Below are positions 2,827 to 32,000 of a stretch of DNA of 32,000 bases, in pieces. The position numbers were made by a program, and so were the translations under genes. Source of the stretch: Candidatus Saccharimonadota bacterium (GTDB taxonomy: Bacteria > Patescibacteriota > Gracilibacteria > BD1-5 > UBA2023); the NCBI GenBank assembly GCA_963706795.1, contig OY970170.1, positions 630,001 to 662,000 of the forward strand. Direction: 5' to 3'. The stretch's first letter is position 1; every line of letters begins with the position of its first letter. The notes below the pieces were generated by a model. The model was not told the DNA's origin. It saw only the letters and a list, made by a program, of their open reading frames with translations, and searched no databases.

Positions 2827-2854
2827 TTGACATACATTCGGACGAGACTATTAT
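2827..2854 (+). promoter_or_regulatory. Sigma70-like promoter for the 2888 gene
   Basis: TTGACA at 2827-2832, a 16 nt spacer, and TATTAT at 2849-2854, about 34 nt upstream of the ATG. Confidence 0.4.
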
Positions 2855-2887: not shown

Positions 2888-3625
2888 ATGAAGGCATCAC
2901 GACTGCTCATCGTAGGGGCCCTCCTCGCATTTGCTCCTGCAATTTTCGCTGCTAGCGGAGACTACAAGGAGGTTGCTTGTGGCACCCAGACGTTCTTTGG
3001 TAGCAATACCTGTAATCAGTGTTTTGACGGAGGAACCCTCACTCCTGGTCAGAAACTCACTGGACTCTATGACTCTTGGACAAACAAAAACGCGACGGAA
3101 CAGGTTATCTACCAGGATGAACAGATGAATCCAACTCTCATCAATCTCGGTGGGAACGGAACTTCATTCGTATCAAATCCTCTCGATGAGGCAAAATTCT
3201 GGAAGTTCGGATCAGAAATTATCTTCACTCCTGAGTCTAGTGGTTCAGGTTCAGTAAAACGAAATGTTTTTTCTCTTAAGCCAGGTAAGACAGTTCGCGT
3301 AATGGATAGCGAGTTTGGCGCATACTACCAGCTCGAAAAGACAGATGCAAAGAAGGGTGCGTTTGTAGCACTCGTAAAATTTCCAGTAAACTATCACGAT
3401 GTAAGTGATCAGACTGGTAAGGCTGGACTCGTTCAGAAACATCTCGAATGTGTGGCGTTCTCAGCTGACGTTCCTGCTGCATCAGTATCTACTCCAGTAA
3501 AGATCGTTCCTACTCCAGCACAGGTTACAACTGTAAAGACGGGAGCTGCAGATACATTCCTCTTTGTGGGATTGGCTATGCTCCTCGCCCTTGCATTCAT
3601 GTTCGCTCGTAAGAGACGTAGTTAA
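2888..3625 (+). CDS. Secreted protein of unknown function with a sortase-type tripartite C-terminal sorting signal
   Basis: The N-terminal signal peptide is MKASRLLIVGALLAFAPAIFAAS. The mature part carries a CxxxxxxxxxxCxxC cluster. The C-terminus is 'VKTGAAD', then the hydrophobic stretch FLFVGLAMLLALAFMF, then the basic tail ARKRRS (an LPXTG-like layout). No UGA codons. Confidence 0.8.
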   Translation: MKASRLLIVGALLAFAPAIFAASGDYKEVACGTQTFFGSNTCNQCFDGGTLTPGQKLTGLYDSWTNKNATEQVIYQDEQMNPTLINLGGNGTSFVSNPLDEAKFWKFGSEIIFTPESSGSGSVKRNVFSLKPGKTVRVMDSEFGAYYQLEKTDAKKGAFVALVKFPVNYHDVSDQTGKAGLVQKHLECVAFSADVPAASVSTPVKIVPTPAQVTTVKTGAADTFLFVGLAMLLALAFMFARKRRS

Positions 3626-3651
3626 ATTGCGATCTTCACTTTCAGATTTTA

Positions 3652-3719
3652 CGTTTCCTCACTCAACGTAGCTGCCGCTACGCCTCGTTGCGGTACGCAA
3701 TCTTCAAGCGAATATCATC
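3652..3719 (+). repeat. Copy A of a paralogous ~68 nt intergenic element (possible structured 3' UTR RNA)
   Basis: It aligns without gaps to 11525-11592, with 45 of 65 positions identical from the TTCCTC anchor. The hairpin is CGTAGC-TGCC-GCTACG at 3667-3682. The boxes TTCCTC, CGGTACGCA and CGAAT.TCATC are conserved at identical spacing. Confidence 0.55.
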
Positions 3720-3771
3720 AATTTTCCTACGTCTGGGGACCTTCGTTATGGTGGCTCCTGACAAAATTAAT

Positions 3772-3806
3772 AAAAAAATCCTCCTGCAAAAGGGAGGATT
3801 TTTTTA
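3772..3806 (+). terminator. Rho-independent terminator (bidirectional shape)
   Basis: A-run, stem ATCCTCC, loop TGCAAAAG, stem GGAGGAT, then T7. Confidence 0.8.
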
Positions 3807-3904
3807 TTTCTTTGACTTTAGTGCGAAACAATATCTCGGATATTTGCACAGCCAAAGAAACTATGCTAAGGTGAGAACATAACGGATATTTTATCTTCCC
3901 ACAT

Positions 3905-6900
3905 ATGAAGTTATTCCAATCTTACGGTCTTATTCGTGCACTTTTCCAAGAGGCCGAATCTCGTGCGAGTGCACCATCCACTCCAACTACCACTCCTATT
4001 GAGACAGTAAAGTCTACGACAGTTCTCGCTGATGCTGCAAGAGATGCCAAAACAAAGGCGGATCTTCTTTCGGCGATTGCTAACTCTCATCTTCCAGATG
4101 ATCAAAAAGCATCACTTGCTGAGGAAATCAACAGCCAGGAAGAGTTTTCACTGCTCGTAAGTCGCGCAATGTCGGCGCTCCGATCCGGTATGTCCCGAGA
4201 TCAGGTTGCATCGATTTTTGTACAGAGTTCTGGCATTGATGAAGCCAAGGCTCGCAAGCTCGCCGTGAGTGTGGTCGCGGTCTATGAGGATTCTAAAAAA
4301 TCTCTTGGTACACTCTCAAACGTACACAAGACTCTTGCGAGCATTCGCCCAGCATTCGAAGGTCGTCTTCGTTTCAATGATGCACTCGATGTGCTTCTTA
4401 AAAATCCAGAACTCTTTGCGGGCTTTACAAAAAATGACACACGCATTGTATCAAACAATATGGATTCATTTGATGCAAACACTGGATCTCAGCGTCTTGA
4501 GGCTGCGCTTACATCAAGTAACTATTTTGGGCTAGCACAATGGGGTACTGGTGAAAACAACTATACACAGTCAGAACTCGCGGCCATCATCGAACTCCGT
4601 GATGCTATCAATAAGGATCCAAAGACATTTGCACTTCTTAAGAACGGTACAAATATCCAACGAACAGTCCGCATCGTCAAAACTGCAGATGCTATGGACG
4701 AAAAAACAAAGTCACAAAATCAGCTCGCGAAGCTCCTCGACTTTAGTAATGATGGACTTCTTACATCGACCAATCACAAAGAAAAAAGCAGCAATCTCAT
4801 TATTGCGACATTTCAGGGGATATTTGGTGGTGGAAAAGATGCTCAGCTCCATGTTGCGACAGAGCTCGCAATGTATCTCAATCTCAAGGACCGAGCAACG
4901 ACAGAAAAGGGTCTTGTAGATATCATCGCAAAGGTTACTGGTCACGGATCAGAGTATGTGGAGGCACGCCTCGATGATCCAAAGAAGTTCGCTCTTCTCG
5001 TAAAGGAATTCCAGTTTTCGTTCCTCAATCAGGTTGCTGATACTACGCCTCAGGTTGCGGCAAAACTCGATGAAAAAACTTCTCAGGAATATTCATCCGA
5101 AAAGATCAAAGAGCAGAATGCAGCGATGAAATTCATCACTAACGCGCTCAAAAAAGAAGAAATGCCTGCTCTCGTCAATGCTAAGCTCAAGGCTGCCGGT
5201 TATCCTGCACTTGAGGGCAAGACGATGGAAGAACTCCTCGAACGTACGGCTTTCCAGATTTCTCTTAATCCACGTTTCTACTCATCAGTCGGAGCAAAGA
5301 TGAGTGTGACCGAAAAGACGTACAACAAAGAGATCATCACTGAAAATGTAAAGCTCATCCACACAATCGAAATTACCAACGATATCACACACGATCCAGG
5401 TACAACTATCGAACACACAAAAACAATCGATACCAAGACGTTACTTGATCGCAATGTCGTGATTGATGGGAATACTGGTAAAGTCATCTCTGATACCACT
5501 GTGGATACTGGTAAAAAGAATGTCACCATTACCGAAGCAACAAAGACCGTCCAGACTCGTACGCCAAGTGATACTTGGAAGTTCACAAAGGTTGATAAAG
5601 GAACTCAGACCGTAGTTGGTAAGACCGAAGTCACTCGTGAATCTGAAACAAAACGCGCATCTAAGCTCATCCCACATATCGTGGTTGGATTTAATCTCGG
5701 TGCATTCCAGGTGGAAGGCAAGGGATATTCGGCTGATGCTGGTGTCGGGGTCTCTGCAGTAGCTGGAGCTGATGGGGTTGTATTCCCAATCTCAGTTTCT
5801 GGTCGCGCAGACGTGGGCGTAGTAAACCGAAATGAATTTCTCCAGACAAGTAATCTCAAGGGTAATTTCACCGTTGGTGGCGAACTTGGATTTACAAAGA
5901 CGGCTGGAAATTCGGTGGTTCCATCGCTCGGATTTAATATCAATCCAAATAACGCGATCGATACTATCAAAGAAAAGCGTGTCGAGATCAAGGAGCTCTG
6001 GCCACTTCTCGGACTTACCCCAGATGGAAAGCTCGATGATAGCAAGATCCAGGCCCGACTTGCTGATCTCATCAAGGAGGCAAACTCAAAAAATCCCGTA
6101 GATGAAGAAATTCTCATGCGAGTTTCTATCATGATGAAGATGCTCGATGGAACAAAGAAGGTTGTTGAAACAACGAACATGACTGACGAGCAAAAACTCC
6201 ATGTACTTCGTAAGACTGCGTCTTTTGAAAAGACATATATGGCTATGGTTCATCAGAACCTCAGCGGACTTCGTGTTGCGGGTGTGAATATCACGGTTAT
6301 CCCAATGATCCATGCGATCTTCTTGGGTCTCAATCTCCAATATGTGAGTCATTCTGCCTCAAAGGACAAGGGAGTTGATGCTACCGAGAGCAAGGTTTTG
6401 AGTAAGAAGCACGCTGATCTTGCAAATGCCGAAACAATCAAAAAGTATGTAACGAGCTTTGATAAAACAACCGGAAGTATCTTGGTTAATCGAGCGGATG
6501 TTGAGGCAGGTATCGTCGTAATTGGCGAATCTCTTCAATCAACTGCCGAAGGAAATAACATCCGCGTAACTCCTCCAGTTACGAGCAAGCTCCGCATTGA
6601 GAGTCAATATTTTGTTACCGGAGAAGGAATTGCCACAACCGGTATCTCAATCGGTGAGGAAAAGGGATTACCAGCTGTCGCAGCTGCTCCAAGCGCTCCC
6701 GTTGCTCCAACAGAAGCTGGTGGCGAATTTAAGAACAGCTATGACAAAGATCTCTTTGGTAAGCAGATTCGCGATGAGCTCTTTGCTCTCGCTCATGATT
6801 CACGCAATACTGCGTTTATCAAGGCACTCAATAGCCTCATGGGTCACAGTGACTATGCCGGAGCTGAGGATCTCATCCGCAAGGGTGGAAAGAAACTCAA

Positions 6901-8074
6901 ATTCCTCACGATTGCGCTCGACAATCCAGGTGCCGACAAAGAAGCCATCATCCGCAATGCGCTTCTCGTAACTTCTGGTGGACGCGAAACTCGTGGTAAA
7001 GAAATCACGTATTCGACTGCAAAGCGAGTACATGATCGCACAAAGAACGCATTTGTTCGTCAGTTGGGCGTAACTGAGGCAGATTATGATGTGTTCATAA
7101 AAGCATACAATAAGTATGATGATCTCCTCATGCGCAATGAAAAGAACGCTAGTGTTCAGGAAGGCGGTCTCAATAAGAACGAAAAAGTAAAATCAGCACC
7201 ACTCTCGCTCATTCTCGGTAACGAAAAAGCGAACTACCGTGAGATTTCAGGAGTTGTAAATTTTGCTCAGATCGATAATCGTACTCACAAACCAACAGTT
7301 CGTGGAACATTCCCATTTAATGGTGACATCAGTGTTATTGGTGGATCAGCCGAAGTTGGAAATGGAGTTATGAAGGGATACATCCTCGGACTCATCGAAA
7401 AGTCTGGTGATCTCCAAAAAAATCTCGACAAAGCCAACAAGGCTATCCCAGGAGCTCGCAAATTCTCTATGGATGAATACAAGAGCTTCCTTCTCGAGGG
7501 TACGCTTCCTACAGACCTTGCAAATGTTGTATCTGCTGAACCAAAGGCAAAGTTTATCACGACTCGTGCTATGCTCCCAGGATCTGAGTGTATCAATGAC
7601 ATCTACGCAATTGCCTTCCCAGTAGTAAAACCGCTCGCAGGTCGTGCAGAAGTTGCACCACCACTCGATCATTCTCCAATCATCATCGAAAAGGAACAAG
7701 GAAATACCTACACAAATCAGGATGGTGTTTCGAGTTTGACACTCGGTATTGATTACCGAAAGGCATTAGTACAGGAGGCTTTCAATGAGTCTGTGCGCAG
7801 AAAAAATATAACAACAGAAGAAAAGGTGGAAACAAGGACAACTAATAAGGATCTTCCGCCAGGAGAATCATTTAAGACAGTGACTACTGGAAATCCTGTC
7901 ATTACAACAACGACAACGACTACTCCGAAGACTCCAGACATTCCAGTGAAACCAGTTGACGATACTAAAACGCCATCCACAAAACCAGTAGAAACACCAA
8001 CGCTTCCAAATGTAAATGGTGGAACTAACAACAACGGTGGTAATCAGACAACAACAGTTACCGAAGGCTTCTAA
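3905..8074 (+). CDS. Giant orphan protein (1389 aa) with a central beta-rich region and a C-terminal Thr/Pro-rich tail
   Basis: One uninterrupted ORF, with an in-frame TAA at 3881-3883 just upstream. There is no obvious signal peptide. I recognise no family. The tail reads TTTTTTTPKTPDIPVKPVDDTKTPSTKPVETPTLP. Zero UGA codons in 1389 codons. Confidence 0.85.
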   Translation: MKLFQSYGLIRALFQEAESRASAPSTPTTTPIETVKSTTVLADAARDAKTKADLLSAIANSHLPDDQKASLAEEINSQEEFSLLVSRAMSALRSGMSRDQVASIFVQSSGIDEAKARKLAVSVVAVYEDSKKSLGTLSNVHKTLASIRPAFEGRLRFNDALDVLLKNPELFAGFTKNDTRIVSNNMDSFDANTGSQRLEAALTSSNYFGLAQWGTGENNYTQSELAAIIELRDAINKDPKTFALLKNGTNIQRTVRIVKTADAMDEKTKSQNQLAKLLDFSNDGLLTSTNHKEKSSNLIIATFQGIFGGGKDAQLHVATELAMYLNLKDRATTEKGLVDIIAKVTGHGSEYVEARLDDPKKFALLVKEFQFSFLNQVADTTPQVAAKLDEKTSQEYSSEKIKEQNAAMKFITNALKKEEMPALVNAKLKAAGYPALEGKTMEELLERTAFQISLNPRFYSSVGAKMSVTEKTYNKEIITENVKLIHTIEITNDITHDPGTTIEHTKTIDTKTLLDRNVVIDGNTGKVISDTTVDTGKKNVTITEATKTVQTRTPSDTWKFTKVDKGTQTVVGKTEVTRESETKRASKLIPHIVVGFNLGAFQVEGKGYSADAGVGVSAVAGADGVVFPISVSGRADVGVVNRNEFLQTSNLKGNFTVGGELGFTKTAGNSVVPSLGFNINPNNAIDTIKEKRVEIKELWPLLGLTPDGKLDDSKIQARLADLIKEANSKNPVDEEILMRVSIMMKMLDGTKKVVETTNMTDEQKLHVLRKTASFEKTYMAMVHQNLSGLRVAGVNITVIPMIHAIFLGLNLQYVSHSASKDKGVDATESKVLSKKHADLANAETIKKYVTSFDKTTGSILVNRADVEAGIVVIGESLQSTAEGNNIRVTPPVTSKLRIESQYFVTGEGIATTGISIGEEKGLPAVAAAPSAPVAPTEAGGEFKNSYDKDLFGKQIRDELFALAHDSRNTAFIKALNSLMGHSDYAGAEDLIRKGGKKLKFLTIALDNPGADKEAIIRNALLVTSGGRETRGKEITYSTAKRVHDRTKNAFVRQLGVTEADYDVFIKAYNKYDDLLMRNEKNASVQEGGLNKNEKVKSAPLSLILGNEKANYREISGVVNFAQIDNRTHKPTVRGTFPFNGDISVIGGSAEVGNGVMKGYILGLIEKSGDLQKNLDKANKAIPGARKFSMDEYKSFLLEGTLPTDLANVVSAEPKAKFITTRAMLPGSECINDIYAIAFPVVKPLAGRAEVAPPLDHSPIIIEKEQGNTYTNQDGVSSLTLGIDYRKALVQEAFNESVRRKNITTEEKVETRTTNKDLPPGESFKTVTTGNPVITTTTTTTPKTPDIPVKPVDDTKTPSTKPVETPTLPNVNGGTNNNGGNQTTTVTEGF

Positions 8075-8082
8075 TAATTCCC

Positions 8083-8310
8083 ATGAAAAATAACCGATAT
8101 ATTATTCCGGTGCTCTTGGCACTTGCGATTCTTGGGGTATGCATATACTTTGTTTCGATGAAGGGATCGAATAAAGGTACTGACACGATGGGCAAAACAA
8201 CCGAAAAGACACAGGGCGTCACTCAGACATGAGATACTCCTGCGAAAGGATGAGCGTCATCGTCGAGTGGAAACACTGCAGTATCCGGCCCCGAAGGCTT
8301 CCAACCATAA
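8083..8310 (+). CDS. Small single-pass membrane protein (75 aa under table 25)
   Basis: The ATG at 8083 lies 8 nt after the giant ORF's stop. The TM segment is IIPVLLALAILGVCIYFV. In-frame TGAs are at 8230-8232 and 8251-8253, and the TAA stop is at 8308-8310. Without recoding this ORF is invisible. Confidence 0.5.
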
Positions 8311-8319
8311 TTTTTTCGC

Positions 8320-11300
8320 ATGAAATATACGGCATATTTTGTAGGATTCCTCCTTTTCCTCTTTCCTGCGTTTGCATTCGCTGCAACCTGTGATCAGACC
8401 TTTGAAGGAACGCTTCGAGTTGGGCAGTGATATAAATTCAGTGACGAATTTACAAACAGTACCGACAATGCGCTCAAGATTGCCGCATTTCGCCCTGAGT
8501 TCAACGAGCAATATGACTACGATGGTGCTGCCGGCGTTATGCATTATGGATGGACGCCATGGATTAGCTCACGAAAGGGTGTTATCCAGCCAGGTGAACA
8601 GGGTATTATAGTTGAGACAGATACGAATTATCCAATCATCTATTCACCACCCGTTCGATCAAAGAATAATCTCACGGTTCGTTACGTAGTCGATTATCGA
8701 CGCCAAGTAAAAGGTGTTTGGAATACTAATATCGAAAGCCACAGTGAATGTAAGTCATACGAAATCACCTGGTGTGGTGATGGAGTAGTGGATTCTCAAT
8801 ATGGAGAACTCTGTGATCAGGGTGCTCAAAATGGGAAGGTAGGTTCAAGTTGTAGTGCCACATGTACGCCCGTTACAACTCCTCCGCTCGATTGTAATCG
8901 CGGTAATGTAACACTTCCACTTACTGCTCCGATTAACTCAGGTACGGCAGGTCTCTGTCAGCCAGGAGTTGCGGTAAATGGCTTTGGTTCTACGATTGCA
9001 GGTACTGCTACAAATTTCTTTTGGGCATGTGGAGCAAGTGCGATTGGTGGTGCATGTAGCGCTACCTATGATACTTCAACCAATGGTGCGCTCTGTACTC
9101 GTGGAAATATCCCACTTCCACTTACGGGAGTAATTACGGTAGCGACTCCAGGACTCTGTCCAGTTGGTCAGACTGCGGAACGCTTTACGGCAACTCCGAA
9201 TGGTACAGGTACCGACTATAGTTGGGCATGTAGTGGTTCGGCTGTAGGAGGATCATGTGCGGCAAGTTTTACAGGTACGCCAGTTACGCCAACTCCGTAT
9301 TCTGCATGTATGCCAGCGAGCCCAACAACGGATTGTTCGGCAAACCAATATGCTACGCTTGCAGCCTGTCTCGTTGCTAATCCAGGAGCCTCAGGTCGTA
9401 CATGTTATCTCAATGATGTAGCGGCTTGTAACGCAACACGAGCAACTCAGTGTCCTGCAACAGTTCTTCCAGGTATTTGTAATAGTCTCACAGCAACTGC
9501 TACGTCTTCAACAACTGGTACTCTCACAACTAACGTGACATGTACAGCGGGAGTTGGCGCCGGAGCAAGTCCAACATTCGCCATCAATTGTGGAAATGGT
9601 CAGACAATCAATGCGGCAACTGGTACTTGTACTTATGCTGCTCCAGGAAACTTTGTAGCTTCGTGTACAGTAAATAACACTACTCCAACACCCGCAGCTT
9701 GTCAGTTACCAATCAGTGTAACCAATGGCGGTGGAGGTGGTCCAGGAGCATGTCGTGCGCTCAATATCCAATCAAGTATTCAGGTAGATAACGGATATCG
9801 TGTTTCATATACTTGTACTGCAAACCCAGGAGTTGCTGGTCCAAACCCAAGTTTCCGCGTAGATTGTGGAAATGGTCAGAGCGTTGGTTCAGATGTCGGA
9901 AGCTGTTTTTATACAGCGGCCAACACCTATAACATGGCTTGTTACGTAGAAAACTCTACAGACTCAGTGAATTGTCAGAAGCCTATCATCGTTGCATCAG
10001 CTGGTGCACCACTCCCAGGTGGAGGTGGTGGTATCGGAGGTGGTGGAGGAAGTGGCTACTGTGGAAACGGCCAGATCGATGCAGGTGAAACCTGTGATGC
10101 TGGAAGCAACGGGGGAGTTCCGATCAATAATGGATTTTGTAATAACTGTCATTCTGGTTGGACAAATCCAGGAGCCTGTGCACGTGGTGCGCTCGACTGT
10201 CCTGCAGGTTGGACAAATCCAGGTGGAAACGGTATCGACATCTACTATCGAGATGGAACAACGAATGCTTCACTCCTCGTACCAAAGATCCGATCGATCG
10301 TTGGTAATGGCGTAAACGTATTTAGTCCTGGTGATGCATTCACGATCCATGCAAACTATCCAATCTATATCGGAGGACTCACAGCTGGCTTCGTCAATAA
10401 CAACACAGGTCTCGTCACTGGAAGCTCAGTCTATCACCCAACTCCAGATACGTGTATCGGAGAAGGAAAGATGCAACTCTACGAAAATGGTCCAACCGTC
10501 AATTGTGGAGATTACACACTCTTTAAGGCGGATGCGAATGGTAAATTTGATGGTACAGCCTTTATCGGTGATACCTCAGGCATCCCAGCAGGTCAGTCGA
10601 GCGCGGATGTGAATCCCTCTCGTTCTGTAGGCTCTGCAGTACGTGAAAATAACTTCTTTGTTGGACTCAACTATCTCATCGAACCAATTCCTGTACGTGT
10701 TGCTCGCTCTGCGATCAGTAATACTGCCGGAGGAAATGCCTATGTTGGAATCCAAGTTGGATATAGCGTAAATTCGATTACGTCATCCTTCATGGATAGC
10801 CTCAAGAAGGGAAACTTCACAGTAACATCTTCGTCGAAGGATATCGCAAGCTCACTCTCTTCTGCTACATCTGAACAAGTCGGCAAGGCAGTCGATGCAA
10901 ATGGAGATCAGAATGCTTCGATCACAAAGTTCTCACAAAGTTCGGATGCTATTGCTAAGACGGTAGTGATTAATTCACAGGCAGACTTCGATACCTTCCT
11001 CTCAAAAGTCGGAGACAATCCAAATCTCTATACGCTTGCCAAGGGAAAAGTCATCATCAATGGCAATCTCCAGCTCTCAGGAGTGAAGACGCTCGTCATC
11101 GATGAAGGAAGACTCGAAATCAATGGCAATATCACCTACGCCGATGCAAATGCCAGCTGGGCATTCGTCATCAAACAAGCTGGAACTGAAAAGAAAGGAA
11201 TCGTCGTTGCTTCATCAGTTACTGATATCGCCGGAGTCTATATTGTCCTCGAGGGTGATATGGTCGGAATGGGTCAAACCATCAATCCACTCGCCGTCGA

Positions 11301-11484
11301 TGGAAACATCAGTGCGAATATCGCTCCACTCGTCAACGACCGAACCTATATCCGAGCAACGCAGAATTCATCGGCACTCTCTACAGGTGTAACGATCAAC
11401 TACTCGACCCGAGCATTCAAGAATCCACCACCGCTCCTCTCGCAGTATCTTGATCAGTACAATCTCGCAAAAATCTCACGATAA
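8320..11484 (+). CDS. Giant secreted Cys-rich repeat protein (1054 aa), putative surface adhesin
   Basis: The track ORF 8539-11484 extends upstream through TGA 8428-8430 to an ATG at 8320. This exposes the signal peptide MKYTAYFVGFLLFLFPAFAFA. Two CG[DN]G..D...E.CD.G motifs occur, near 8773 and 10060. There are two 67 aa tandem Cys modules (8893-9093 and 9094-~9280). There are also two ~90 aa 'CGNGQ' modules (9478-~9750 and 9751-~10060), poly-Gly linkers, and a beta-helix-like C-terminal region. Confidence 0.85.
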
Positions 11485-11524
11485 ATAAAATCGTATATAA
11501 CTTCGATATTCATGTTTAGGCTTT

Positions 11525-11592
11525 GCGTTCCTCGCTCGAAGTACTTACCAGTACATCTTGCTTCGGTACGCAGCCTGCGCACGAATCTCATC
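11525..11592 (+). repeat. Copy B of the paralogous ~68 nt intergenic element
   Basis: Same boxes and spacing as 3652-3719. The hairpin is GTACT-TACC-AGTAC at 11541-11554. Two base pairs are changed in a compensatory way relative to copy A. Confidence 0.55.
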
Positions 11593-11612
11593 GTTCTATA
11601 CGATTTTTTCAC

Positions 11613-11648
11613 CCTCCAAAGCTCATAAGAGTAAAAGGAGGTTTTTTT
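11613..11648 (+). terminator. Possible terminator (weak, long loop)
   Basis: Stem CCTCC, a 19 nt loop, stem GGAGG, then T7. Confidence 0.4.
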
Positions 11649-11874
11649 GAATTGCTGTTACTCAAATTCTGTGGATCTCGCTGTCTCGTGGACCTGTGCC
11701 CTTGGGTATCGTCCGTTTCTTTTTGTTTGTTCGACAAGGGTAGAGATTTGATTAATAAAACCTTCCTCGTTGTCTAGGTGCCTCACTGCACAAAAAGAAA
11801 TCGGATCGATCATGGCCGCGCTGCGATGGACGATCAGTGAGAAATATTTGGGGAAGCTTAGATGAAAAAGCTTT

Positions 11875-13686: not shown

Positions 13687-13765
13687 GCGAGGGTAACATA
13701 AAAGAGTGAGTGTACTGAGGCTTCAACCCTCGGGTGTGCCGGTTCGAACCCGGTCCCTCGCTCCA
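13687..13765 (+). tRNA. tRNA-Gly(UCA), the UGA-decoding (recoding) tRNA
   Basis: The acceptor is GCGAGGG/CCCTCGC. The anticodon stem is TGAGG/CCTCG. The loop is C-T-TCA-A-C, with the anticodon at 13723-13725. The variable loop is 5 nt. The T arm is GCCGG-TTCGAAC-CCGGT. U73 and CCA are encoded. G1:C72, C2:G71, G3:C70 and U73 match bacterial tRNA-Gly identity elements. The D arm is atypical (a 20 nt D region with no clear GG), so a covariance-model check is needed. Confidence 0.8.
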
Positions 13766-14834: not shown

Positions 14835-14886
14835 AAAACTCAATAATAAAACCCGTCATATATGACGGGTTTTATTATTGAGTTTT
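14835..14886. repeat. Left copy of the 44 bp direct repeat, inside a perfect 52 nt palindrome (a bidirectional terminator)
   Basis: AAAACTCAATAATAAAACCCGTCATA|TATGACGGGTTTTATTATTGAGTTTT. Positions 14835-14878 are identical to 19262-19305. Confidence 0.9.
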
Positions 14887-14891
14887 GGTGT

Positions 14892-17408
14892 TTATTGAAA
14901 AAGTGCTCGAAGAGTGCTTTTTGTGGTTGATTGGGGTATTATTTGAAATTGATATCCAGTAAATTTTCTTACCCCGTCTCTTGCTCATTCTTCAGTCATT
15001 CTCTGGAATACTAGTTCTTTATATCTCGTATCGAGATTTTCTACTAACTGATCTCATTTACTTTCTATGATATAGATTAACTCAAGTTTTCACGCTGTAT
15101 CTTGTTTTGCAATAATAAAATCAGGATATATTTTATTCTTTCTCCACGCCTGTATCTTGTAGGCACTTTCTTCCACCTTATTTCTCATCCACCATAACAC
15201 CTTTTCTTTTGTTCTGAGTTCTTCTATAACCTCCTTTTCGAGATTATTCATAGTTACATAATCCACTGCCAGATGGAGACACTTTGGATCAGTCTTGAGT
15301 GGCAGAATTGTCTCGCTATCTTCGTCAAATTTTGCTGGAGCTGAATATAATGTTGGAATTGTATAACCTCACTCTTGTGTGATTGCAAGAAATATAGTTC
15401 ACTCAGATACAAGTTTATTAAAAACAATCTCTTCATTTTTATAGCACTCACTTCTGATAAATTTCGAAATTTCATGCGCAATATATCCAAAATCACTTTC
15501 GATAGTGGGTCTATCTATTTTTTTGGATAAATTTCAGACAATTTGTTGAACGAGGTCATAGGATACAAATGGATTCCCAATATATTCTGATATTATTTGA
15601 GAGGTGATATATTCATCTCATCACTCGACATGTTCTTTTTCATATTCTATACCCTCTCAGGCATATTCTCCTCAAAGAAAATATTGGAGATCAGTACCTT
15701 GCATCTTCTGTTTTCCTACAGTTTTTATGAGTACTTCCAAAAGTGGAGCAAGGTCTAGATTATTCCAGTCTATTCGAGGAAGAATATCTGATCTATATGA
15801 CAATGCACGAATCCCGTGAGTATCCTCTATATGCCAAATTGGAAGCGAGAGAGATTCTGGATATTCTTCGATAAATTGAGATTGTATAGAGAAATCTCTA
15901 TACATGAGTCATTTTCCACTTGGTCCTGAGCTTCCTTTGACCGTATCGATTATGTCTTCGAGCCCGTCACTTTCCAGAGATTTTTTGATTCCCTTGAGAA
16001 GCTCCTCACTATCTGAGTGATTGAAATACGCATAACACTGATCGAGTTCCGATATACCTGTACGCTTTGTGTATGGTTGTCTCAAAACACGCCCTATAAG
16101 CTGAGTGAGGGCAGTAGTACTACTGGAAGTAGGAATCACTCATAAAACATAAGCAAAGGGGCAATCCCAGCCCTCCATAAGTGCCTGTTTGGTGATAATA
16201 TATCGTATATCTGAATCTTGAGACATGAGGACCTCATCTTTGAGTTCGTCGATATATGATGATTTTATAGCTATCTGATTGCTTGGTATTCCTATCTCTA
16301 CGAGATACTCTTTTACATCGTCAGCGTGGACATGAAGCCCATCTCTCTTGTCCTTTCCAGTTCTATCCGCTTGGAGGAGTGCTATAGGTCTGATATAGTC
16401 ACCTTTTTGCTCTTTTAGTCCGAGTGCTTTCTTTTCAAGTTCTTCTCTCTTTTCTCGTACATCATGTATGAGTTCCCTCCAGTTATCATTTGACTCTGGA
16501 CGGACATTGATAGGGAGCTTTATCATCTCATCTCTATAGAGGTCCATTCACTTGATAGTGACGAGGATATTCATCCCAGCTTTTGGCGTGGCGGAGAGTC
16601 CTATCATACATCGAGGATTGAGAGAATCGAGAACTCTTCTCTGAGCATCAGTATAGACCTTATGAAACTCATCCACGATAAAAAGCGGATTACATACTCG
16701 TATGATATTTCCGAGACTTGTCTTTATTTGTTTGACTCATAGGAGGTCTTGCTCGAAGCAATCGAGCATAGGGAATTTTTCCACAAGAGCATCTATCTTA
16801 TCTTTCTCATGCTCCATAGGGAAGAAATCCATAAAATTCCCAGAATCTCGAAAGACTCTCAGATTTTCTTTTGTTTCTTGATTGGCTGATTGTATCATCA
16901 CCATAAGCACGACGAGGTTTTCTTGAGTATCTTGCCATCGTATTGCATCGGTTTTTTCGAGTATAAGGGTTCTATCACCACTTACCTGATCGAGCATCTG
17001 CCTATAGGGATTTGTCTTATCTTTGAGCTTCTCTATTGTCTGGAGGTATATAGAATCCGTATGAGTTACCCATACGATGAGTCCTGTTCTCTTTTCGAGG
17101 AATTGGTTTTGATAGTGCTCTACGGTTTTGATACCAAGTAGTGTCTTTCCTCCACCTGTAGGCACTTTGATACAGAGGCGTGGATATATCACTCATGCAC
17201 TTTCTGGAATATCAGAAAAATCCCTATATTCTGGAGTTTTTGTATATATCTCTTTTACTGGAGGAATAAGTGAAGCAATCATAGAGTCGAGTCCTGCCAT
17301 CTTCAATTTCTGGAGTTTATCATTGTACGAAAAAGACTCATCTTTCCATTTTTGGAAAAATGTCTCAAGTGTAAGTACCACTTTTTGTTGAGAGCTTTTT
17401 AGTAACAT
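14892..17408 (-). CDS. res: Type III restriction enzyme Res subunit (838 aa; SF2 helicase plus C-terminal PD-ExK nuclease)
   Basis: One frame, re-stitched through 15 TGAs. Motif I is 'VPTGGGKT', motif II is 'VDEFH', and there is an 'EGWDCP' box. Motif VI is 'QLIGRVLR'. The C-terminal 'YPDF...IIESKG' matches PD...ExK. The TAA stop is at 14892-14894. The start lies 2 nt after the mod stop. Confidence 0.85.
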
Positions 17409-17410
17409 AA

Positions 17411-19105
17411 TTATTTTCTTTGGAATAGATTATAAGGTACTTGTACGAAAGATATATGATTATCATCGAGGACCTCTTTATCGAGGAAGCACGCTGGAGC
17501 ATATACTATTTTCTTTCCCTCTGTAGATTTTACGCTTTCGAGCCAGTCACGAGTGATAGCAAGATTGCGGAGTTCCTCTATAGTATCTGCATATATGAGA
17601 TATACACCTGTATTTCGGTCCTCAGTACATATTTCCCATGTAGAATCTGGATCAGCAATATCATCTATTGGCTTGCCTGTAGCAAGGAAGTAGACATACT
17701 TTGCGAAACTTTCCCAGCTTGGAAGTGATTCTCATTCAAGGATTTTTCGTCACTCAATAGATGGACCAAGATTATAATAGGTAAAACCGACAGCGAGATC
17801 ATATTTTTCTACTACTTTTTTTATGCGGTCACGAGTTATTTCGTGAATAAAATCATATCAAGCTGATTTTGCCTGTGCCTTTTCTGTAAGAGTTTCTGGA
17901 AGTTGTACGAGGATAAATTTTCTATTTCCACCATCCTCTTGATTCAATTCCATAATAGCCTGTGCAGTTGTTCCAGATCCAGCAAAAGAATCAAGAAATA
18001 TTCCATTCTCAGAATTTGGAATAAATCAAAAGAAATACTTGAGCATATGCTTTGATTTCGGATTATCAAAGACTTTTACTCCACCAAACAATTCTGTAAG
18101 TTCGTTTGTACTTCAGCGACCATCCTCATAATAAAGACTTCGGAAACGATCCGAAATATTATCCAATCTTATTTTTGGCTTAATTAAAGTTGTCTCGTCT
18201 TTTCAAAACATTATGTCCTTATTCTTGAGCATATCAATCATCGTTGCCTCTGAAAATCTATATCAATTCGGCGGTAACGAACAAACTTCTCCAGTTAGTG
18301 GATGAACAACATCATATGTATACCCTCAAAGCCGAGTATTTGAGATATCTCAATCATGAAAGACTCATTTTTCATCAACATTATCGTAATGAGTTACTCT
18401 TTTTAAAGCATTTTCATTTTCTCGTATCCATTTTCTGAGTAACTTTTGAATTTTTTCAAAATCATCTCCAAATTCTTCTTTTAGTTCTGCATATTTTGTA
18501 TTTATCATCATTCATCAATGACTCATATTCTTCCAGTAAGTCTGAGAACTCTTATTTTTTGAATATATCAAAACATATTCATGTTCCATTACAATCTGGG
18601 TAGGATTATTATCTGTGGCAGTTTGAACGACTACAGTACCCAAAAAATCACCCTCCCTAAAAATATCATCACATAGAGATCTGAGATTATTTACCTCATT
18701 TTCATCTATCGAAATAAATATCACTCCATCTTCAGCAAGAAGCTCTCTCAAAAGTTTGAGACGAGGAGTCATCATACAGAGCCACTTATCGTGACGAGTC
18801 ATATCCTCTTTATCTATAACTTTTCCGAGCCATTCTTTTATAATGGGACTACTTACATTATCATTATATGCCCAGCCCTCTTTTCCTGTATTGTACGGGG
18901 GGTCAATATATATACATTTTACTTGCCCTTGATATTTCGGGAGGAGAGCCTTCAGAGCGAGGAGATTATCTCATTCTATAAGGAGATTTTCACTCGCATT
19001 TTCACCATCGAGAGAATTTGATTCTACTTTTTCGAGAGTGTGATATGGTACTGAGAGGTGATGATTCCAGACAGCTGATTTTCCTTTAAAATTAAGTGAT
19101 GCCAT
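17411..19105 (-). CDS. mod: Type III R-M Mod subunit (564 aa; beta-class N6-adenine/N4-cytosine DNA methyltransferase)
   Basis: One frame, re-stitched through 13 TGAs. The N-terminal segment reads 'LIE(G)DNLLALKAL'. The catalytic motif IV is 'IDPPYNTG'. It also has 'HDKWLCMMTPRLKLLRELL' and the AdoMet motif I 'DSFAGSGTT'. The mod-res gene order is typical of type III systems. Confidence 0.9.
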
Positions 19106-19261: not shown

Positions 19262-19305
19262 AAAACTCAATAATAAAACCCGTCATATATGACGGGTTTT
19301 ATTAT
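19262..19305. repeat. Right copy of the 44 bp direct repeat. It also serves as terminator for the S8 peptidase gene.
   Basis: Identical to 14835-14878. The palindrome is truncated on its right arm, after ATTAT. Confidence 0.9.
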
Positions 19306-31157: not shown

Positions 31158-32000
31158 TTAGGAATTGATTTGAAATACACTCATACTCTTGGTAAGTCCT
31201 TGAGCTTGTGAGGTAAGTGATGCGGTTGCAGCGGCTGCTTCTTCGACCAGAGCTGCGTTTTGTTGCGTGACAGTATCCATCTGACCAATCGCTTCGCTGA
31301 TACCAGTGATATCATTGCTTTGTCTGGCAGATGCTGTGCTAATAGACTCCACGATGGCAGTAACACTGGCGATCGCTTTTACGATATCCTGCATACTCTC
31401 ACCGGCTTCGTCCACTAATTTGCTGCCCTGATCAACAGTTCTCATCGACGAGCCAATGAGTTTTTTAATCTCAGCGGCAGCGGCAGCTGATCGTTGAGCA
31501 AGGGTTCGAACTTCGGTCGCGACGACAGCAAAACCACGACCTTGTTCTCCGGCACGTGCAGCTTCTACGGCTGCATTGAGGGCTAGAATATTTGTTTGAA
31601 AGGCGATGCTATCGATAGTGCTGGTAATATCGCCAATCTTTTTGGAGCTTTCTTTGATTAATCCCATAGTTTCAATTACGGAATCAACCACCCTTCCCCC
31701 TTCAACAGCCATATTGGATGCCTGGATGGCGAGCGTGTTTGCTTGCTCGGCATTTTCGGCATTCTTTTTGACGCTGCTCGTGAGAGTTTCCATAGACGCA
31801 GCTGTTTCTTGGAGAGACGAAGCTTGCTCTTCGGTGCGGCTTGAGAGATCAAGATTTCCGTTGGCAATTTCGCTTGCTCCGATAGCAACTGTATTTACAG
31901 ACTGTCGCACTTCTCCCACGGTGTGTGCGAGATTTTCAGACATGTGAGCCACGGCTTCCATAAGTTTGCCGATTTCGTCACGGGTTGTGGCAGTTATTTT
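31158..32000 (-). CDS. Methyl-accepting chemotaxis protein. Only the C-terminal signalling domain is present, and the N-terminus lies beyond the right edge.
   Basis: It carries the highly conserved MCP hairpin core '[41 protein letters not shown]'. Methylation-helix heptads are present. The frame stays open to position 32000 and reads '..TRDEIGKL', the end of a HAMP domain. Confidence 0.9.

Follow-up and report, generated by a model that had tools for sequence, protein, structure and literature searches.

A four-gene module conserved beside frr in Gracilibacteria may encode a surface contact complex

Gracilibacteria are almost uncultivated, and the way in which they hold or feed on other cells is unknown. 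Large clostridial toxins and the A subunits of Tc toxins are very large, non-repetitive, multi-domain proteins without signal peptides that are encoded beside small membrane proteins or partner subunits, and the attachment organelle of Mycoplasma, a wall-poor bacterium that lives attached to its host and has a reduced genome, combines cytoplasmic HMW proteins with surface adhesins. For bacteria of the Candidate Phyla Radiation (CPR), the idea of attachment by large surface proteins is established in the literature; giant PKD/DUF11 membrane proteins have been proposed to attach Vampirococcus lugosii, a predator that uses genetic code 25, to its host (PMC8080830). A hypervariable surface-protein gene, with its variation in the PTD repeat array of that one gene, has been described in a BD1-5 Gracilibacterium, and a sortase has been reported in a Gracilibacterium other than the one studied here (10.1101/595074). 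Here we analyse a 32,000-nucleotide stretch of a Gracilibacteria genome (GenBank assembly GCA_963706795.1, contig OY970170.1, positions 630,001 to 662,000 of the forward strand; hereafter the window), in which a first-pass annotation had pointed to a cluster of giant or orphan surface proteins. The cluster consists of four plus-strand genes: g245 (2888-3625; 245 amino acids, aa), the gene of a signal-less protein that we call the giant (3905-8074; 1389 aa), g75 (8083-8310; 75 aa) and g1054 (8320-11484; 1054 aa). We tentatively read the module as a Gracilibacteria-specific surface contact complex in which g1054 would form an exposed fibril, g75 its tether, and the giant a partner located either at the surface or at the cytoplasmic base.

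All four open reading frames (ORFs) are present where the first-pass annotation had placed them under code 25, in which TGA encodes Gly, and g75 indeed comes into view only under that code, its frame depending on two TGA codons read as Gly. We found no recognisable enzymatic domain in any of the four products (Pfam, NCBIfam, PHROGs, PADLOC) and no known system that the arrangement matches, in both respects as had been supposed; outside the giant, for which these libraries held nothing significant, what they returned was below threshold or generic. Those parts that could be classified are of known kinds (a sorting signal, a lipoprotein, PKD modules). Compared with the LPXTG/MSCRAMM adhesins of Gram-positive bacteria, g245 has VKTG instead of LPXTG and an almost invariant membrane segment, which is unusual if that segment is cleaved, while g1054 lacks a sorting signal and ends in a 440-residue unclassified domain. 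A sortase-assembled pilus cluster would have its own pilin-specific sortase gene and LPXTG on every subunit; here neither g1054 nor the giant carries a sorting signal, and the window and all the loci that we fetched are devoid of a sortase gene. Like clostridial and Tc toxins, the giant is large, non-repetitive, multi-domain, signal-less and encoded next to a small membrane protein; unlike them, it shows no sequence or structural similarity that we could find to a toxin, and no holin-like or lysis gene accompanies it. The Mycoplasma organelle shares with the module a large signal-less protein with a proline-rich region that is co-encoded with surface adhesins; the two are, however, not homologous, a coiled coil does not describe the giant, and Gracilibacteria have peptidoglycan and sortase-type anchoring. 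The giants of Vampirococcus and other code-25 CPR bacteria, proposed to recognise the host and hold it, are likewise large, carry PKD and DUF11 modules and come from reduced genomes, but they are listed singly as inferred membrane proteins (PMC8080830), whereas here the module is a fixed set of four genes whose largest member has no signal peptide, membrane segment, repeats or known domain. As with the hypervariable BD1-5 gene, a surface-protein locus is far more variable than the remaining genome (10.1101/595074), but instead of a PTD array the whole three-gene operon is divergent here, with a sharp boundary and no repeat array. In the literature searched we found no account of the four-gene module, its distribution, the orphan giant, the C-terminal domain of g1054 or the cassette-like divergence.

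We fetched 26 loci for comparison, two of which (L003 and L005) stop short of the g245 side, and found one gene order in every locus of sufficient length: frr (the ribosome recycling factor gene), a g245-type gene, a signal-less protein of 900-1400 aa with a low-complexity tail, a small lipoprotein or transmembrane (TM) peptide, and a g1054-type gene. This order was seen in L001, L002, L004 (partial), L005, L006, L007 and L009, and also in the distant L011, L015, L019/L026 and L021/L022, in which g245 identity is 34-47%; relatives carry the labels Gracilibacteria or Patescibacteria. The first-pass annotation had singled out the last three genes, and it is this trio, in fact all four genes, that every fetched locus of sufficient length keeps. 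In some lineages the giant is recognisable only by a C-terminal motif of ~70 residues, and the positional giants of L006 and L007 have nothing but a weak match to this motif in common with the window giant (hhalign E 0.002, probability 14%). In L006, g245 and the positional giant are separated by an inserted 735-residue ORF without similarity to the module (4157-6364, minus strand), which shows that this junction can be interrupted while the module persists. The giant and g75 are separated by 8 nucleotides (nt), and g75 and g1054 by 9 nt; on this spacing the three genes likely form one operon, in agreement with the first-pass annotation.

Divergence across the locus changes abruptly at the start of this operon. 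Between the window and L001, identity is 80% for Mfd, 89% for ribosome recycling factor, 83% for ELP3 and 87% for g245, versus 62% for g1054 and 45% each for g75 and the giant. Between L001 and L002, the DNA is ~90% identical through Mfd, frr and g245 and 60-75% identical from the giant start onward, and synonymous divergence (dS, Nei-Gojobori) rises from 0.4-0.5 in the flanks to 1.6 in both the giant and g1054. Four-fold degenerate sites, counted at identical residues only as a check free of multiple-path bias, gave the same picture for this pair (fraction differing 0.29 in Mfd, 139/475, 0.24 in frr and 0.25 in g245, versus 0.53 in the giant, 231/438, 0.43 in g75 and 0.60 in g1054). Because of this raised four-fold-site divergence the operon has a deeper neutral history than its surroundings, which suggests either that it was replaced by a divergent allele through recombination or that its mutation rate is locally raised. 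The ratio of nonsynonymous to synonymous divergence (dN/dS) in the operon is 0.13-0.27 for the same pair, from which it follows that its proteins are functional and under purifying selection, and, together with 1389 and 1054 stop-free codons, that the ORFs of the giant and g1054 lie far beyond chance. The giant evolves as fast as g1054, with a dN five to ten times that of the cytoplasmic flanking proteins, while g245 changes at a housekeeping-like rate (dN/dS 0.08-0.10 and 87% identity against the L001 and L002 orthologs). The operon is also distinguished by codon usage: TGA accounts for 0/99 Gly codons in the giant and 1/129 in g1054, versus 66/460 (14%) across the window's 20 remaining genes. 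This depletion recurs in most orthologs (L001, L002, L004, L007 and L009; exceptions include g1054 of L009, with 12/194) and may reflect high expression.

The gene g1054 begins 9 nt after the g75 stop codon and encodes a secreted modular protein. A signal peptide (aa 1-21) is followed by a head like that of g245 (aa 22-150), a CGDG Cys-rich repeat (aa 151-183), two PGLC...WxC repeats of ~50 residues each (aa 190-320), two PKD/Ig modules (aa 387-467 and 480-560), a second Cys-rich repeat (aa 580-612) and a conserved domain (aa 613-1054) that ends INYSTRAFKNPPPLLSQYLDQYNLAKISR. The protein contains 40 Cys and two poly-Gly runs (aa 470-476 and 567-577), and its gene has a single TGA, at codon 37. 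Kinship of the two heads was found both within the window (hhalign probability 92%, E 7e-7) and between the g1054 ortholog of L009 and g245 (blastp E 1.5e-7). The CGDG...C repeat is Cys-rich and acidic, and its matches to TIGR02232 are weak. Over aa 387-560 Pfam scores stayed under the gathering threshold (PKD_4, 20.0 bits vs. 27; PKD, 18.8 vs. 23.5); in Foldseek searches the confident part of the structure model (pLDDT, the predicted local distance difference test, 70-90; the model starts at residue 38, after the TGA at codon 37) matched the PKD pair of SorCS2 (E 1e-4), and the PKD part matched Vibrio and Clostridium PKD domains (probability 0.96-1.0), which identifies a beta-sandwich fold. 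Other members of the family carry DUF11, PKD and Ig domains (Pfam, NCBIfam) and range in length from 750 to 1630 residues, a variable stalk being set between the conserved head and the conserved C-terminal domain. The latter spans ~440 residues, and its end motif, INYSxRAFxxPPPLLSxYLxQYxL, is almost invariant; profile searches returned no PDB relative of this domain, and PDB sequence searches with the g1054-family and g245-family profiles gave no matches. Of the first-pass description, the secreted, Cys-rich and poly-Gly character of g1054 stood, and the beta-helix C-terminus found no confirmation: the only confident beta-rich block lies at aa 877-997, and because the model is mostly of low confidence the domain stays unclassified. 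Taken together, the predicted parts would follow the logic of an adhesin fibril, in which a variable stalk joins the head to a conserved base.

The giant had been described as a protein with no signal peptide, a beta-rich core and a Thr/Pro-rich tail. Its first and last traits hold (the final 90 residues contain 31% Thr plus Ser and 12% Pro), while the core proved to be mixed alpha/beta and not mainly beta. There is no in-frame TGA, and the sequence runs from a helical domain (aa 46-450) through long beta hairpins with a conserved Gly-rich block (aa 456-683) and further helical and beta domains (aa 684-1140) to a conserved C-terminal motif that holds the single Cys (aa 1180-1250) and the Thr/Pro tail (aa 1300-1389). 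An AlphaFold model of residues 1-1200, based on a 26-sequence alignment (mean pLDDT 66.9), was confident for the helical regions aa 50-380, 690-810 and 950-1020 and for a beta domain at aa 840-920; at aa 456-640 it placed strands of 30-38 residues with low confidence (pLDDT 35-65). These strands overlap the best-conserved stretch of the protein, aa 590-683, which is rich in Gly, Ala, Val and Ser and alternates in polarity. That all four genes encode surface proteins, as the first-pass annotation had it, was borne out by export or anchoring signals in three of the products and not for the giant, whose orthologs and positional equivalents, across deep divergence, all proved to be free of an export signal. 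We considered an upstream start with a hidden signal peptide and rejected it, given the terminator and conserved promoter block upstream and the conserved ATG, which is kept in L001 and L002 together with M1, K2, S6, Y7, G8 and R11; a readthrough fusion of the giant to g75 was likewise rejected, as two consecutive TAA stops and then a change of frame intervene.

Relatives of the giant are few. Two came from a word-based search among 5.8 billion proteins and 26, all of them family members or fragments, from an exhaustive profile search against 1.84 billion protein representatives; a pattern scan across 185,579 species genomes yielded two loci. There was no significant match in Pfam, NCBIfam, PHROGs, PADLOC or PDB sequences, and a Foldseek search of the model against the PDB and viral structures (BFVD) returned nothing below E 0.1; homology to a known cytoplasmic family, which would have spoken against the first-pass proposal, was found neither by sequence nor by structure. 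Neither a blastp self-comparison nor hhalign of its thirds revealed internal repeats, and the giant differs from repetitive adhesins (Bap/Embp/SRR) in having no signal peptide, repeats, anchor motif or Pfam domain. It contains one Cys in 1389 residues next to Cys-rich secreted neighbours. In composition, the giant as a whole lies midway between the cytoplasmic and secreted proteins of the window, its helical domains being cytoplasm-like and its Thr-rich beta region and Thr/Pro/Gly-rich tail secreted-like. Given this midway composition and the lack of an export signal, its location could be either the surface or the cytoplasm.

The short protein g245 resembles a sortase-anchored protein in its layout, as the first-pass annotation had proposed. 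An N-terminal Sec signal (aa 1-21; Kyte-Doolittle 2.19, ending IFA|AS) is kept in 26 homologs and precedes a head of ~175 residues with four Cys (aa 22-195) and a Pro/Thr stalk (aa 196-213); then come the pentapeptide VKTGA (aa 216-220), the 19-residue hydrophobic segment ADTFLFVGLAMLLALAFMF (aa 221-239) and the positively charged tail ARKRRS. Within the pentapeptide, T218 and G219 are invariant and the L and P of LPXTG are absent. The sorting-signal assignment draws on a TIGR01167 score of 16.1 bits (cut-off 15.9) and on 33 homologs, part of which are named LPXTG-anchored by the Joint Genome Institute (JGI); resemblance to DUF7601 stays below threshold (15-21 bits vs. 27). The stretch aa 221-245 (3548-3622) is almost invariant, as ADTFLFxGLAMLLALAFMFARKRKS, across homologs that are 38-50% identical elsewhere, and such near-invariance was unexpected in a segment that sortase would cleave and discard.

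The gene g75 starts 8 nt after the giant stop codon and encodes a basic N-terminus, a single hydrophobic segment (aa 7-25) and a disordered tail of Gly, Thr and Ser. The claim that it is a single-pass membrane protein holds for the window, while elsewhere the family is mostly made up of canonical lipoproteins, as judged by lipoboxes (LASC, IVSC, LVSC, LSAC or LTSC) in the positional orthologs of seven other lineages (L003, L004, L006, L007, L009, L021 and L026); those of L005, L011 and L015 are plain TM peptides. The window copy has LGVC, with Val at -1, fails the lipobox rule [LVI][ASTVI][GAS]C and is probably a signal-anchored peptide. The trait common to the family is that of a short membrane-tethered peptide.

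We reasoned that these parts could work together as follows. Secreted g1054 would cross the membrane via Sec and be stabilised by disulfides, its conserved C-terminal domain would dock non-covalently at the surface, most likely on g75, and the docked protein would show its variable stalk and head outwards as an adhesin fibril, while g245 would display the same type of head on a short stalk anchored in the wall or membrane. The giant would be a stoichiometric partner with one of two places: at the surface, reached by a non-Sec route, where its conserved Gly-rich hairpins would touch the partner cell, or in the cytoplasm, as the base of the complex. Three grounds make contact with a host or prey plausible, namely the adhesin-type modules of g1054, the cassette-like divergence of the operon and the published proposal for CPR attachment; the selection behind the rapid divergence would then come from the partner cell (host or prey), from phages or from competitors. 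Several points weigh against this reading. Partner binding and the contacts among the four products are ones that we infer from sequence. Docking of g1054 on g75 is a guess, because g1054 has no recognisable anchor or sorting signal, and the lipobox of the window g75 is degenerate. The giant may never reach the surface, given that it has no export signal, no repeats and cytoplasm-like helical parts. The cassette signal comes from one genome pair, in which L002 ends inside g1054 and hides the right-hand boundary, and the g1054 model has a mean pLDDT of 48.9.

A fixed site beside frr and a slow g245 would also fit a housekeeping role in the envelope, in which the module would build a wall-associated or S-layer-like coat without specific host contact and its divergence would stem from low constraint or phage pressure. 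We regard this as somewhat unlikely, while acknowledging that the module sits beside frr in all sampled lineages like a vertically inherited core locus, that g245 is as slow as housekeeping genes, that TGA depletion fits the very high expression of major envelope proteins, and that an S8 protease in the window has C-terminal repeats that look S-layer-homology (SLH)-like by eye, without a domain search. Against a coat stand the doubled four-fold-site divergence, which is confined to the operon and for which relaxed protein constraint alone is insufficient, and the lack of any SLH or other known wall-binding domain in the four proteins (Pfam, NCBIfam); a variable stalk between a conserved head and C-terminal domain is, moreover, typical of adhesins. 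That the genes are a mobile or phage-derived island of tail-fibre-like or defence genes inserted beside frr would account for large, fast-diverging orphan genes, yet the position is fixed across the class, GC content equals that of the flanks, no integrase genes or flanking repeats were found at the module, none of the four proteins matched PHROGs or PADLOC below E 0.006, and no viral structural relative was found; we consider this origin highly improbable.

The remaining alternatives turn on the giant. It could be a contact-dependent toxin or translocator that leaves the cell without a signal peptide, in the manner of some large toxins, and whose hairpins at aa 590-683 insert into the partner membrane, with g1054 binding the receptor and g75 acting as tether or protective factor. 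Consistent with this, the most conserved part of the protein is the Gly/Ala/Val/Ser-rich stretch of alternating polarity modelled as 30-38-residue strands, the protein diverges fast, and its non-repetitive, multi-domain build and lone Cys beside Cys-rich secreted neighbours are toxin-like rather than adhesin-like. The hairpin region is, however, modelled with a pLDDT of only 35-65, Foldseek matches to pore-forming toxins and porins were all noise (E above 1, probability ≤0.05; for beta-barrel toxins of the aerolysin and haemolysin types, E ≥1.9 and probability ≤0.02 at best), the cluster contains no holin, secretion ATPase or lysis gene, and the small protein is no holin but a lipoprotein; we judge a toxin unlikely. 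A cytoplasmic giant, acting as a scaffold or an enzyme of unknown kind and only loosely linked to its neighbours, with co-location due to shared regulation or a place at the base of a surface organelle like that of Mycoplasma, would explain why no ortholog has an export signal and why the helical domains, which are also the confident parts of the model, are cytoplasm-like in composition. It sits poorly with a protein that diverges as fast as secreted g1054, has a secreted-like beta region and tail, and has its translation closely coupled with that of two exported proteins in every sampled lineage, and we hold it to be quite unlikely. The surface contact complex could also be taken further, to a Sec-independent, so far undescribed contact apparatus that would deliver the giant to or into the partner cell via its Gly-rich hairpins, guided by g1054 and held by g75, with whole cassettes exchanged between lineages to change hosts or to keep pace with them; this extension is speculative and, in our estimation, improbable.

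With the comparisons made here, a single-genome oddity becomes a defined module with clear parts, an address beside frr and cassette-like diversification, present in every sampled lineage, and thereby a concrete target for experimenters and for metagenome analysts who seek determinants of host specificity. Because no relatives are detectable in sequence and fold libraries, new folds may be present in the giant and in the C-terminal domain of g1054; should the giant indeed leave the cell, an export route so far not known for these bacteria would be indicated.

The regulatory layout separates g245 from the operon. A promoter-like site (2827-2854, plus strand; TTGACA, a 16-nt spacer and TATTAT, 11/12 matches) lies 34 nt upstream of the g245 ATG, and an intrinsic terminator of 17 pairs followed by a T run (3769-3808; symmetric, with A and T runs on its flanks), which is kept in L001, ends the unit; g245 is its own transcription unit. 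Upstream of the giant, the block at 3812-3846 (plus strand) consists of TTGACT and the perfect palindrome AATATCTCGGATATT (3830-3844), a pattern that recurs identically at L001 9915-9946 and L002 8483-8514 and that occurs rarely in the window (chance expectation 0.12); we regard it as a candidate promoter plus operator. A two-mismatch copy of the palindrome overlaps the g75 start (8089-8103, minus strand). The operon is framed by a terminator before and after, with this single conserved block upstream. The claim that it ends in a terminator was upheld in part: an interrupted hairpin (CCUCC...GGAGG, then U7; 11613-11650, plus strand) folds at -14.2 kcal/mol and is terminator-like, if weak, and was missed by the pattern scan because its loop exceeds 8 nt.

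Two copies of a structured element in the 3' untranslated region (UTR) accompany the two genes that share a head. The first (3626-3740, plus strand), ~100 nt that form a long imperfect stem-loop, directly follows the g245 stop, and the second (11500-11605, plus strand), ~70% identical to it, directly follows the g1054 stop. By nhmmer the element was also found after the g245 orthologs of L001 (9746-9859) and L002 (8312-8424), and a covariance model placed it after the distant g245 ortholog of L009 (7098-7209, 48 bits). RNAalifold predicted 28 pairs with compensatory changes in 13, copy 2 has a folding z-score of -4.8 and a covariance-model score of 110 bits, and Rfam held no match. The element may stabilise messenger RNA or mark transcript ends of surface-protein genes.

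Assignment of code 25 to the window draws on the need to read TGA as sense for many of its long ORFs to open, on a normal-sized tRNA with anticodon UCA (13687-13765) that adjoins a tRNA-Gly(GCC), and on alignments of Mfd and ELP3 with their orthologs, in which TGA columns hold Gly in 108/185 of the other residues and Trp in 0. The flanks are housekeeping genes on the minus strand: Mfd and frr precede the module, and an ELP3-like radical SAM gene lies to its right. One member of the g1054 family from a Logan assembly (P0010) has Trp at sites where all relatives have Gly (WGW, GWNL), evidently because TGA was translated as Trp instead of Gly, a database artefact for code-25 lineages.

Two further observations concern the remainder of the window. 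An ORF at 31158-31961 (minus strand), which perhaps extends beyond the window end and has no TGA codons, appears, when its translation is inspected by eye and without a domain search, to encode a signalling domain of the methyl-accepting chemotaxis protein type; for a reduced CPR genome, a chemoreceptor would be unusual. Just after a tRNA-Arg, the type III restriction-modification genes res and mod (14892-19105) are bracketed by a perfect 44-nt direct repeat in the form of a terminator-like hairpin (14835-14878 and 19262-19305); their GC content is low (35-38%), TGA makes up 31-34% of their Gly codons, and the segment has the appearance of an island that was inserted from a different organism using code 25.

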